Positions 59,852-63,127 of a DNA stretch of 64,000 bases are shown here, piece by piece (positions within the stretch are counted from its first letter, which is position 1; the number at the start of each line of letters is the position of its first letter). Below the pieces are notes generated by a model. The model saw only the letters and a list, made by a program, of their open reading frames with translations. It was not told the DNA's origin and made no database searches. The position numbers and the translations under genes are program-made. The DNA is from an uncultured Clostridia bacterium (GTDB lineage: Bacteria > Bacillota > Clostridia > Oscillospirales > Acutalibacteraceae), in the NCBI GenBank assembly GCA_944384825.1, contig CALWUT010000021.1:4399-68398 (forward strand), in the 5' to 3' direction.

Positions 59852-60950
59852 TTAACTGTAAAATTTCAATTTTTCCTGCTCTTCATGTTCCCATAGTTCC
59901 TTACCTTTACCACCATAAAGCTGCTTCTCTACAGTAAACAATTTTTCTTTATATTCAAACTCAGACTTAAGAAGTGAATTTTTCTTTTCAAGCTCTAAAA
60001 TTTCTTTTATGTTACTTCCTATTTTGTCTCTTATAGCGGTAATTTGTGCCATGTATTCAAAAATTTTATTTTCTAAAAACTCCCTCATGTCTTTACTAAG
60101 AGACGGAGAAGATAGCATATTTTGTACTCTGCCTAAATTATAAGATAAAATTCTGAACTTCTGAGCTATTAAATCTGCCTCTTTTGCTTTCCCTTCAAGC
60201 GTCGTTACATGACCTAAAGCTTTAAGTCTTTTTTCTACAATATCAAACGGTATTTCAAGGTCCGATACCTTTTCTTTTAACTCATTAAGAGCTTTATTTG
60301 CCTCATTTCTTGGATTAGATGCAGTACTTCGAGAACTGTGAGGAGTGGATGAGCGAGTTCTACTAGCTCTGGGTATCGATGTCCTCGGCGTTCTTGGTGT
60401 TCGTGGAGTAGACGTTCTTGCCCTTGATCCACTCGAAGAACGCAAAACCTTACTTATTTACGCTTTGCTTGTGCTTAAAACATTGTCCATTAGCTGCTTA
60501 TAATTGTTATATGAAGAAACCGCAGCCTTAACCCCTTCGCTCGCTCCTGAATACTCGACCATGCCATCTTCATTAACTTTAAATCCCGTTAATGACTTTA
60601 ATTTATCAAATCTGTCCGCTAAAGCTAAATTATTATTTTTGATAGCATTTGTATGAGCATCAATAACTCCGGACTGCGACTCGGTATTTCCTGTTAATTC
60701 TCCGGTCGCAGCAGCTGCATCACGCTCGGCAGCAGCTAAAGCCTCAGTTAAAACGGAGTCAAGCATCGTAATTTGTGTATCTTGCATTTTTGCTGTAAGC
60801 ATATCTCTTAACGCTTGTTCATTTAACACTAATTGCCCATTTTCTACAGAAAGCAAAGAAATATATTCGCTGCCTAAAGATAAAAGACCTTCAGCGGACT
60901 TACTGGATGATGCTGATTCGGATAATAAGAATGGATTAAGTCTAAATTAT
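59852..60950 (-). pseudogene. 5'-truncated coiled-coil/tape-measure-like gene with in-frame TAA and an S/T/P/R-rich linker
   Basis: Frame opens after a TAA near 60950 with no start. Reads ...SAEGLLSLGSEYISLLSVENGQLVLNEQALRDML...STSKA-TAA(60458-60460)-ISKVLRSSSGSRARTSTPRTPRTPRTS... Confidence 0.55.
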
Positions 60951-61191
60951 GATTAATTTCAGCTATAATTTCTTTTGCTTCTCGTGTTATATTCAAACAC
61001 TTAATACTATCTCTTAACTCAAATGTTCTCTCGTAAATTTTTTGGAAATACGAAGAGCATACAATCTCATCAATTTTAGACTTTAAAGCATTTGCTATAC
61101 AATCTCCCAATCCATCATTTTCACTTATAGCTAATTTAGTTTGATTTAGTATATACTCCTCATGTTCTTCGATGCTGCTTACTTCTTTCAT
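60874..61191 (-). CDS. hypothetical protein (105 aa), third cassette position
   Basis: GGGGGA RBS before MKEVSSIEEHEEYIL.... Follows the third PINYPDGA-type junction remnant. Confidence 0.45.
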   Translation of the reverse strand: MKEVSSIEEHEEYILNQTKLAISENDGLGDCIANALKSKIDEIVCSSYFQKIYERTFELRDSIKCLNITREAKEIIAEINHNLDLIHSYYPNQHHPVSPLKVFYL

Positions 61192-61350
61192 TATTTGTCC
61201 CCCATAAAAATAAATAACCATACGTCGAACGTACAGTTATAGTAAATTTTCTTTAATTAAAAAATTATTTTATTTCTTGCTCCAAATTTTTAAACTCTTG
61301 CGCTCCATCAGGGTAATTTATTGGCGAATATGTGCTATGCTACTATGAGT

Positions 61351-61638
61351 TTATATTGTTCTATTCCATACTCTTACCTTAGTAATTACATCACGCAAAC
61401 GATACTTTCCCACCATATACTCTAAAACTTCGTCCGCATTTGCACAAATTTTCTCAGTTTCCTGTTTATTCGCTTCATATATTGCTATACCATTAGAATC
61501 CGCTACTATTCCATAAATTTTATCTTCCCATTCAAACTCTACTTCACTATTAGAACTCATTGCCCATTTAAATTCATTTATTGTCTTAAATCTATTTTCT
61601 TCAAAGTATTCATCATTTGGTACATTTCCATTATTCAT
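61351..61638 (-). CDS. 95-aa protein paralogous to the C-terminal module of the DUF4417 fusion
   Basis: NRFKTINEFKWAMSSNSEVEFEWEDKIYGI...ADEVLEYMVGKYRLRDVITKVRVWNRTI aligns with NRFETISEFKWCVDNGGEVEFEYNDVIYNI...AEEVLEYVIEGKKLREIIKDIIVWNRTL. Confidence 0.65.
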   Translation of the reverse strand: MNNGNVPNDEYFEENRFKTINEFKWAMSSNSEVEFEWEDKIYGIVADSNGIAIYEANKQETEKICANADEVLEYMVGKYRLRDVITKVRVWNRTI

Positions 61639-61721
61639 ATTAGCTACTCCTTCGTAACTTTTAAATTCAGGTGCTCCGTCTAGATAATTTATTGGTTAAC
61701 AGGTAATATGCTCATGCGAAT

Positions 61722-63127
61722 TTATAGTGTTCTATTCCAAACAATTATATCTTTAATAATCTCACGAAGCTTTTTCCCTTCAATTACATATTCCAAAACC
61801 TCTTCAGCTATATCACATATCATTTCAGTTTCTGGCTTAAAGGCCTCACATATATAAATTCGACCTTCTGGATGAGTAATATTATATATAACATCGTTAT
61901 ACTCAAACTCGACTTCTCCTCCATTATCTACACACCATTTAAATTCACTTATAGTTTCAAATCTATTTTCTTCAATGCTATTGCTAGGTAAAAATACTTC
62001 TTTGCACATATTATTATCTCCTTTAAAATTCTTAAATTCTGGTGCTCCATCGGGATAATTTATCGGTGAAAATGGTCTTGGTGCTCCTGTGTTAGGATCC
62101 CATATTATATTGTGATCATGTGGATTGGTATGTTTATTTGGTGTATTATGATCAGTATTATGCCTTTCCTTAATTGCCCTACCATCTTCTCCTATTTTAG
62201 TTTCTTTAAGATAACCTCCATTTTTTCCTTCGTACCACGTTTGATTAACCGACCCAGGTTTACCTAAAAGTCTCTTATCATCTTCTTTTTTAGGAATCCA
62301 TTTTCCTCCATAGGCACTACCTGAACCTTTTTCGACATCCGGAATTACATAGCCTACTTTTCTTATTATATCACAATTTTCCAGCCATTTTTCTTTACCA
62401 CATATATATTTGAAATACGGAGAATAATTTTGAGAAATATCTTCATTCATATGTCTCCATGAACTAAGTTCATAATCTACAAAAATGATATTTCCCTCTA
62501 TCTCTGGGAAGGGAGTATTATAGCATATTATAGCTTCCGGCTCTATTCGCTTTAGCATCTCATTATATCCTGCCATAAAAAATTCTTTTTGATCTGCATG
62601 GTTGTTATGCTCTGAAACCATATATGTTGAAACTGCTACTGTGGAACCTTTTTCTATGCCTTCAAAACAAAAATCAAACGTTTCTTTAAGTCCCCAATTA
62701 ACTGTTGGAATTACTCTTATTCCTTTTGACGCAAGATAAGCTCCGCACCAATGATTACGGAAAGTATTATATATCTTAAGAGGATTCGCCATTTCAATAT
62801 ACATACTAAAGTCAGGTGTAAAAACCGCTTTGTATTTTTTAGTTTACCAATATAATTTTCTGATTTTTCCCAAAAACATTCAAATTTATAATCATATAAG
62901 AAAAAATGTACTATCCTATCAAAATGTTCATCTTTTTCTGTTTTAGCCACATCAAATTCTATAAGTCTAAGATCTTCAAAATCTCCTTCCCTAATTTCAA
63001 ACTTAGGTATCAAAGGCATACAACATTTCCCTATGCCATAAAATTGATTTCTAAGAAATAATGGATCTGTCCTATATTTAAAATTTTGTTCTGTCATTTT
63101 ACCACTCCTAAAAAAATAAGGCTTCAC
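61722..63127 (-). pseudogene. DUF4417-family protein fused to a His-rich region and a variable C-terminal module; frameshifted at an A6 run
   Basis: N-terminal frame HFFLYDYKFECFWEKSENYIGKLK breaks at T6 62835-62840. The next frame gives KYKAVFTPDFSMYIEMANPLKIYNTFRNHWCGAYLASKGIRVIPTVNW (DUF4417 core), then ...RHNTDHNTPNKHTNPHDHNIIW...SPINYPDGAPEFK. Confidence 0.6.

Follow-up and report, generated by a model that had tools for sequence, protein, structure and literature searches.

Why should a gene be followed by further copies of its own C-terminal end, each lying behind a remnant of the sequence that precedes it? This question is raised by a 64,000-nucleotide (nt) stretch of DNA from an uncultured Clostridia bacterium (contig CALWUT010000021.1; this whole stretch is hereafter called the window), in which a DUF4417 gene with a histidine-rich (His-rich) core ends in a module of 95 amino acids (aa) and is trailed by a second, orphan module and by repeated copies of a junction encoding PINYPDGAPEFK (the PINY junction). 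A previous examination of the letters (the sequence-only reading) had likened this arrangement to the CdiA-CT, Rhs and MafB systems, in which recombination swaps toxic tips. We propose, with the balance about even, that it is a polymorphic locus of prophages and mobile elements that evolves by C-terminal displacement, in which the module is an immunity-like partner of the His-rich domain. The anatomy and the evolutionary dynamics described below can be stated with considerable confidence, and the immunity-like function of the module is put forward more tentatively, as a suggestion that falls a little short of an even chance. The feature is recurrent and appears to be undescribed.

All features of the array, including the open reading frames (ORFs) of the scaffold, lie on the minus strand. 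A repeat search of the window detects a direct repeat of 371 nt from start to start, the unit of which consists of a junction, a module of ~95 aa, a stop codon and a spacer; two tandem copies of this unit are followed by a third copy of the junction. Specifically, unit 1 (62070-61700) and unit 2 (61699-61329) share 61% identity over 371 nt without gaps, compared with 30 ± 2.3% for shuffled controls (z = 13.7). This self-comparison bears out the earlier observation that the junction recurs twice as DNA repeats beyond chance: in the 64-kb window only three sites, J1, J2 and J3, have at least 27 of 39 matches to J1, and their pairwise identity is 74-82%. The third unit resembles the repeat over its first ~60 nt only, at 73-80% in the first 30-nt bin and 60-67% in the second, and then falls to background. 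In line with the earlier proposal, the 95-aa ORF behind the second junction (module B) is a paralog of the fused module (module A), with 53% protein identity (E = 9e-29); in frame upstream of it stands TAA-PINYLDGAPEFKSYEGVAN. The synonymous distance (dS) between modules A and B is ~1.65, indicating that they are old alleles rather than products of a recent local duplication. The exact protein of module B is also found on two other contigs. A terminator-like hairpin beyond J3 is the probable 3' end of a predicted array transcript.

Module A is the C-terminal domain of a 360-aa ORF that comprises the C-terminal part of DUF4417, a linker, a His-rich beta domain, J1, a linker with an internal ribosome-binding site and the module itself, and that ends with ...SPINYPDGAPEFKNFKGDNNM-module A-NRTL-stop. 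The scaffold had been described as a DUF4417 fusion. The domain assignment stands, since this ORF and the one upstream of it both match DUF4417 (PF14386) above the gathering cut-off of 28.9 and jointly cover positions 12-182 of the family; however, the gene is frameshifted and its N-terminal part lies in the separate ORF 62717-63127. By homology, the scaffold starts at the ATG at 63097 (MTEQNFKYRT). Alignment with the intact genes of two related loci, L001 and L062, which have an A7 run where the window has A6, places the loss of one A at ~62826-62831 and turns CTAAAAAAATAC into CTAAAAAATAC.

The 360-aa ORF has 1,351 homologs with the full architecture of DUF4417, His-rich core, PINYPDGAPEFK and module, a family of gut Clostridia. 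Among the best 120 of these, query coverage is 94-100% (100% in 119 of the 120) and identity is 52-76%. Full-length homologs are mostly 450-465 aa long and follow one order of parts: DUF4417; a linker; the motif GSAYGGxWxPxKxxDERFLGxPGEIK; the His-rich core, with the family consensus TKIGxDGRAxKERHxTDHxxPxxHTNPHDHxIxW; PINYPDGAPEFK; a variable Met-containing linker; and the module, which ends with ...LRDVITxVxVWDRTI. The modules form a family of their own, with 541 representatives at 50% clustering, and occur either standalone (~90-130 aa) or at a C-terminus; their N- and C-terminal flanks are conserved, and their centre is variable and rich in indels. All modules belong to this one homologous family, and a single type of His-rich core plus module is found. 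The AlphaFold2 (AF2) model of module B is a confident alpha/beta fold, with a predicted local distance difference test (pLDDT) of 89.8. The AF2 model of the full-length homolog P0001 (pLDDT 81.2) comprises three domains and includes a disordered linker (residues 358-367), and its His-rich strands, E284-342, are modelled at pLDDT 78-94.

To define what varies in this family, we compared 78 full-length genes, among which 59 pairs have a DUF4417 protein distance <0.10. The His core and the module are both alike in 13 of these pairs and both divergent in 44; the module alone is divergent in two pairs, and the His core alone in none. The two parts were thus replaced together in 44 of 46 exchanges. 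In the pairs in which both diverge, His cores lie 0.45 apart on average and modules 0.42. Across these 44 of the 59 close pairs, the DUF4417 distance is <=0.09 while the His core and module diverge by 22-57%. Nine independent pairs of the both-divergent class, three of which are tandem full-length paralogs in one genome, retain 87-100% identity in most 15-residue bins up to profile position ~225-270, drop at positions 270-286 and stay at 30-60% from there to the end. Because the drop follows ...DERFLGxPGEIK, the boundary between the constant and the variable part lies ~70 aa upstream of the PINY junction rather than at the junction. Judged from these alignments, the exchanged unit is the His-rich core together with the module. 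Additionally, two full-length genes with DUF4417, His-rich core and module stand close together in five species (L030, L037, L040, L056 and L083); the paralogs of L030, L040 and L056 differ by 0.03-0.04 in DUF4417, by 0.29-0.54 in the His core and by 0.37-0.51 in the module.

The fused module carries its own translation signals. A Shine-Dalgarno sequence is found at -17 to -4 before the module-start Met in 65 of 77 fused genes; of all other Met codons that these genes have in frame, 44 of 671 are so preceded (Fisher p = 2.5e-51). The GGAG/GAGG core of this sequence occurs in all three codon phases (15, 17 and 19 cases) and lies 6-11 nt from the ATG in 44 of 51 cases, and the hexapeptides that it encodes are different in 51 of 51. 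The use of all phases and the diversity of the hexapeptides argue for selection on an RNA motif, not on a peptide. Module B starts in the same way as module A, with AAGGAG before its ATG. The conserved Shine-Dalgarno sequence and ATG in the linker therefore predict two products that contain the module: the long protein, which it terminates, and a free protein of ~95 aa made from the internal start. This would make the module a nested in-frame gene. A literature search for a toxin whose immunity protein is made from an internal start returned nothing relevant.

Downstream orphan modules are not peculiar to the window. A scan of one genome per species covers 80 loci, mostly of Oscillospiraceae, Acutalibacteraceae and other Clostridia from animal guts, and a hidden Markov model (HMM) of the module detects at least one downstream orphan in 21 of 75 informative species loci (28%). 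Full length is retained by 32 of the 36 orphans and a start codon at the expected place by 34, and some are truncated or contain stops. The largest array, on one metagenome contig, has a fused module and seven standalone ones, eight in total, with a period of 345-361 nt. Arrays are also present in isolate genomes (Clostridium merdae, Candidatus Soleaferrea massiliensis and Pseudoflavonifractor sp. MSJ-37), and so are not artefacts of metagenome-assembled genomes. The modules of an array share one orientation, with no interleaved genes, and in most arrays the spacers measure 12-110 nt. What lies between the modules is of three types: a Shine-Dalgarno region only, of 12-30 nt (L018, L043, L055, L069); a relic of the junction, 60-110 nt long and frequently interrupted by stops (window, L001, L002, L024, L070); or a relic of the entire His-rich domain, of 250-370 nt, which is sometimes still open (L037, L049, L065). 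Because the relic thus ranges from 12 to ~370 nt by lineage, the junction is not a universal recombination site. The constant element across arrays is the module with its own start signals, and the adjacent relic decays.

Orphan modules evolve much like fused ones. The ratio of nonsynonymous to synonymous substitution (dN/dS) is 0.14-0.20 between orphan and fused orthologs and 0.15 between fused copies. Specifically, module A gives 0.15 against its fused ortholog in L062 and 0.14 against its orphan ortholog in L001, and module B gives 0.18 against the fused copy in L001, at a dS of 0.20. These estimates indicate that the orphan modules are under purifying selection. In several lineages the scaffold is broken and the module intact. 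The same A7 run has been shortened by one A in the window and, independently, in L003/L058, where the gene is only ~69% identical in DNA; L098 has a nonsense codon and L099 a deletion of ~7 nt, both likewise in the N-terminal part of the scaffold; the scaffolds of L062, L086, L090 and L096 contain frameshifts; and in Faecalispora a scaffold with three frameshifts is followed by an intact module. This repeated breakage reflects either recurrent inactivation or a hypermutable tract. A phase-variable A7 run as a general off-switch of the scaffold was considered and rejected, since only the window and L003 are broken there and the lesions of L098 and L099 differ. In the phage loci L092-L094 (5001-5276), a standalone module of 91 aa, P0124, directly follows the major capsid gene, and what remains of the scaffold is a short relic of the His-rich end and junction, HEVDW...PHINYSDSNVPEFK, upstream of the intact module. 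The P0124 protein is indexed in 319 blocks of the collection, and this phage is widespread.

The history of the window allele can be followed in its nearest relatives, L062 (89% DNA identity) and L001/L004 (83-86% over the gene). As had been suspected, modules are shuffled among relatives: the window has A fused and B as an orphan, L001 and L004 have B fused and an A-type orphan, and L062 has A fused and no B. Upstream of ~62354, the window is 88-100% identical in DNA to L001/L004; the bins at 62354 and 62295 give 0.88 and 0.77, and identity stays at 75-83% beyond them. Between the window and L001, dS is 0.17 in DUF4417 and 0.20 between the two B modules, as compared with 0.5-0.69 in the His-rich region and 0.71 between the two A modules. 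A block common to the window and L001 (61284-61695, 89.6% DNA identity) runs from the opening bases of J2 to a point inside J3, past ...EFKN, so that junction copies mark the edges of a rearrangement in this lineage. The simplest reading is that B would be ancestral to both lineages, and that the window lineage would have gained a diverged unit of His-rich core, junction and module A, by which the ancestral B was pushed downstream behind the relic J2; J3 may then be the truncated edge of an older array.

These comparisons show how the locus evolves. Recombination replaces the whole variable unit and pushes the old module, together with a relic of variable length, downstream; the displaced module survives as an independently translatable gene under purifying selection, and an array of paralogs in the same orientation results. 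As to function, the module would bind or neutralise the His-rich domain, following an effector/immunity or toxin/antitoxin logic. The fused copy would act in cis, and the free and orphan ones in trans, with orphans serving as spare or cross-protective copies that would also counter non-self alleles. Neighbour-ORF clustering across 81 loci detects no conserved partner or export gene beside the locus, and a cognate partner, if there is one, must therefore lie inside the gene. We assign the neutralising role to the module because it is exchanged together with the His core, persists without the scaffold and is left without another candidate partner gene, and because the locus parallels described arrays (PMC5361080, PMC3482391). 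The position is that of a candidate immunity gene, immediately downstream of the His core, co-varying with it and equipped with its own Shine-Dalgarno sequence and ATG, but with no stop codon in between.

In-frame nested genes with an internal start are known from the Tn5 transposase and its inhibitor and from phage lambda C/Nu3. As in these, a Shine-Dalgarno sequence and an ATG lie within a longer ORF in the same frame, and the predicted short protein is the C-terminus of the long one; unlike in these, the short unit is also amplified as downstream paralogs and co-varies with the adjacent domain. Among E-type colicins, homologous DNase effectors and homologous small immunity proteins diversify as cognate pairs. 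The locus may be compared by analogy, as a case of diversification of cognate pairs rather than swapping of unrelated folds, yet it has no sequence or fold relation to colicins, no HNH motif was recognised, its two parts are fused and export or receptor domains are absent. The dynamics are those of C-terminal displacement arrays, including content that varies among close relatives: a constant 5' part is retained, the 3' unit is replaced, and the old downstream gene is shifted 3' with relics in between. In Rhs and in Vibrio cholerae type VI secretion system (T6SS) arrays, displacement is driven by the acquisition of a new 3' end (Kirchberger et al. 2017, PMC5361080). In contrast to those arrays, the scaffold here is DUF4417 without T6SS or Rhs components, the retained unit is fused in frame to the variable domain, and all units are paralogs of one another. 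Homogeneous polyimmunity loci (Zhang et al. 2012, PMC3482391) likewise consist of uninterrupted tandem small paralogs on one strand with short spacers, vary among strains and often lie near recombinases; the present module differs from them in standing outside the described Imm, SUKH and SuFu families, in having its first copy fused to a putative effector, and in the upstream-domain relics that separate its copies. In temperate phages, MuF polymorphic toxins carry a variable C-terminal domain at a head-cluster position (Jamet et al. 2017, PMC5576092). The phage carrier is shared with them, as are a fusion of Phage_Mu_F (E = 1.4e-7) with His-rich core and module in P0217, a distant representative and the only one with MuF, and a His-rich plus module gene within a Mu-like head gene cluster in L091; the C-terminal unit is thus portable. 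However, the window protein matches DUF4417 and has no Phage_Mu_F domain by Pfam, its C-terminal domain is no known toxin, and the putative immunity is fused rather than a separate gene.

Could the modules nevertheless be toxic tips swapped at PINYPDGAPEFK, as are the orphans of CdiA-CT, Rhs and MafB? The analogy holds for the dynamics, namely a constant N-terminal front, a variable C-terminal tail and displaced orphan cassettes downstream (J2-B and J3 in the window; 21 of 75 loci), and it probably fails for the roles, since the modules look protective. The swap at the junction is likewise half right: junction copies flank the cassettes and bound the block shared with L001, cassette order varies among relatives and the module alone differs in two of the 59 close pairs, but the usual, family-wide exchange boundary lies ~70 aa upstream, and relics of such unequal length do not mark a fixed swap point. 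Neither several unrelated toxin families among the C-terminal regions nor the scaffolds and demarcation motifs of CdiA-CT, Rhs and MafB (VENN, PxxxxDPxGL with RHS repeats, DUF1020) were found, the Pfam scan giving only DUF4417. With a single module family and no interleaved immunity genes, swappable toxic tips are unlikely; the modules also persist without a scaffold, and since a ribosome-binding site precedes each of them, a toxic tip would be made without protection. We therefore regard toxic tips as highly improbable; the 95-aa module looks more like a protective partner. Silent cassettes are hardly more attractive. If downstream modules were unexpressed donors for gene conversion of the fused copy, as in pilE/pilS or vlsE, and served to diversify a surface or recognition domain, the direct orientation of the arrays and the conserved flanks around a variable, indel-rich centre would be expected; yet the orphans keep start codons, Shine-Dalgarno sequences and a dN/dS of 0.14-0.20, the junction relics that conversion would need decay and carry stops, the His core changes along with the module and the array is absent from most species, so that we consider this very improbable. 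The degraded prophage end, the frameshifted scaffold, the split tape-measure gene, the integrase fragments and the orphans that are truncated or carry stops would all suit functionless debris, left behind by tandem duplication or by illegitimate recombination as a prophage decays. Debris does not account for arrays in 28% of informative species loci with differing breakpoints, for purifying selection on orphans, for start signals that are preserved while the adjacent relic decays, or for an A/B dS that excludes a recent duplication, and we give it very little credence.

A different kind of explanation dispenses with toxicity altogether. The gene may produce long and short isoforms, in which the module oligomerises or binds a partner and the free module co-assembles with or titrates a full-length DUF4417 enzyme, much as Tn5 transposase and its inhibitor or other in-frame nested genes do, with orphan paralogs modulating or cross-inhibiting related proteins of co-resident or incoming phages. 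The conserved internal Shine-Dalgarno sequence and ATG in the same frame, the intact free modules under purifying selection, the phage and prophage context and the absence of a toxin signature from the Pfam scans are all compatible with it. It gives no reason why His-rich core and module should vary in step beside a constant DUF4417, or why the scaffold should decay repeatedly when the module persists; on these grounds we think it unlikely.

Several points also weigh against an immunity-like partner. The close pairs are not phylogenetically independent, and co-exchange of His core and module could reflect physical linkage alone. The variable regions are all homologous and diverge as alleles do, rather than representing unrelated toxin folds, and an effector fused to its own inhibitor is unusual. 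Beyond DUF4417, the domains have no match in Pfam, NCBIfam, PADLOC, PDB sequences and folds or annotated viral folds; none of 44 modules matches the Imm, SUKH or SuFu families of Pfam, and none of the His-rich plus module sequences matches its Tox/Ntox families. No signal peptide, secretion or delivery gene or trafficking domain was found by Pfam or among the neighbours at 81 loci, the MuF fusion of P0217 being the sole hint of delivery. Finally, most of the sequences come from metagenome assemblies. The more specific proposal of a phage-borne effector family that carries its inhibitor as an in-frame nested gene, with expressed orphan inhibitors protecting against non-self alleles, is accordingly offered as possible but rather doubtful; if true, the toxin/immunity problem would have been solved genetically in a new way, and there would be a functional handle on DUF4417.

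Other searches were similarly uninformative. With Foldseek, the models of the module and of the full-length protein have no PDB match at E <= 1e-3; weak matches to PCNA/clamp folds recur with TM-scores <0.3 and were disregarded. The best BFVD match of the module model is an uncharacterised siphovirus protein of 88 aa (E = 5e-3, TM ~0.6), which says little. Whole-family and His-rich profiles retrieve nothing meaningful from PDB sequences, and a Pfam scan at E <= 1 over all members of the His-rich and the module alignments gives scattered chance matches only. A search with the His-rich profile revealed no alternative C-terminal domains, as it returned only proteins of <=193 aa that are apparently fragments. 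Neither a near-identity search of 59300-64000 against GenBank phages and PLSDB plasmids nor tblastn of the His-rich plus module region against GenBank phages gave a match.

Table 1. Features of the locus, with positions in the window
Feature	Position	Strand	Remarks
DUF4417 scaffold, N-terminal fragment (ORF)	62717-63127	minus	Pfam DUF4417 positions 12-68, E = 1.6e-8, 34.6 bits
360-aa ORF, rest of scaffold	61722-62804	minus	Pfam DUF4417 positions 75-182, E = 1.5e-30, 106.5 bits
Constant/variable boundary (approximate)	62240-62300	minus	Just past ...GSAYGGKWIPKKEDDKRLLGKPG motif; conserved DUF4417 upstream, exchanged unit downstream
Variable His-rich core	62070-62243	minus	...TKIGEDGRAIKERHNTDHNTPNKHTNPHDHNIIWDPNTGAPRPF; predicted beta-rich
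Junction J1	62031-62069	minus	SPINYPDGAPEFK; translated within fusion ORF 61722-62804
Internal Shine-Dalgarno AAGGAG	62018-62023	minus	8 nt before module A ATG (62007-62009)
Module A, 95 aa + stop	61722-62009	minus	C-terminal domain of fusion; module HMM 126 bits
Spacer	61639-61721	minus	Holds J2 and module B Shine-Dalgarno AAGGAG (61647-61652)
Junction relic J2	61660-61698	minus	PINYLDGAPEFK; in-frame TAA before; in frame with ORF 61351-61638
Module B, orphan 95-aa gene	61351-61638	minus	Fused module in nearest relatives L001, L004
Junction relic J3	61289-61327	minus	SPINYPDGAQEFK, then NLEQEIK-stop
J3 + tail, truncated downstream array edge	61265-61327	minus	SPINYPDGAQEFKNLEQEIK-stop; L001 homology stops at 61284
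Terminator-like hairpin + T-run	61214-61240	minus	Consensus scan only
Unrelated ORF, 115 aa (105 aa from second ATG at 61191)	60874-61221	minus	Unrelated to modules

The ORF that follows J3 had been set apart from the modules as unrelated, which it is, and had been offered as an alternative C-terminal module, which found no support. It has no homolog in 97 related loci, in GenBank phages (tblastn), in Pfam or in NCBIfam, and no exact protein record; its PHROG matches are weak (best E = 5e-4). The hairpin of Table 1 overlaps the first codons of the 115-aa form and precedes its second start codon. With no recurrence in related loci and a terminator-like hairpin before the second start, we rejected this ORF as a third alternative module, and it is probably a separate gene or an insert. 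It takes the place of the A-type module in L001 and of a 3.6-kb segment in L062. In L062, a Phd-like/PIN-like pair (94 + 128 aa) and a 479-aa protein on the opposite strand (4340-7132) occupy the place where the window has module B, J3 and the 105-aa ORF; this difference in content marks the site just 3' of the gene as a hotspot of cargo turnover.

Over the 81 loci, the recurrent neighbours are serine recombinases (11), tyrosine integrases (7) and tail genes (5 + 4), and on viral contigs the gene lies at prophage ends or among tail genes. DUF4417 itself shows enrichment in phages and occasional fusion to ParB-like domains. The surroundings in the window are those of a decayed prophage end. An integrase C-terminal fragment lies at 63175-63582 and a GmrSD_C restriction-endonuclease fragment at 59370-59792, and a tape-measure-like gene that is intact in L062 (708 aa, 7627-9753) is split into ORFs 60458-60856 and 59852-60445. 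Elsewhere, two paralogous proteins of ~480 aa without Pfam domains are encoded directly upstream of the DUF4417 gene in L002 (2854-5900) and L003 (4144-5607), within a chromosomal island, with a radical SAM/DUF2344 pair on one side and SpoVT on the other; in other species the gene does not have them as neighbours.

Taken together, the analysis brings to light a His-rich domain and a module of ~90 aa that have no curated match, in a family that is abundant in human and animal gut Clostridia and their prophages. The conserved internal Shine-Dalgarno sequence makes the prediction of a nested gene directly testable, and annotators of such loci should mark the relics as non-coding and record both the internal start and the orphan ORFs. 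If the proposed role of the module holds, the conflict systems of a gut lineage that is dominant and little studied would be enlarged by a new effector/inhibitor pair. The locus would then also be a clear case of an in-frame nested gene that has additionally been multiplied into separate genes, and would extend the dynamics of C-terminal displacement and polyimmunity beyond the classical secretion-linked toxins.

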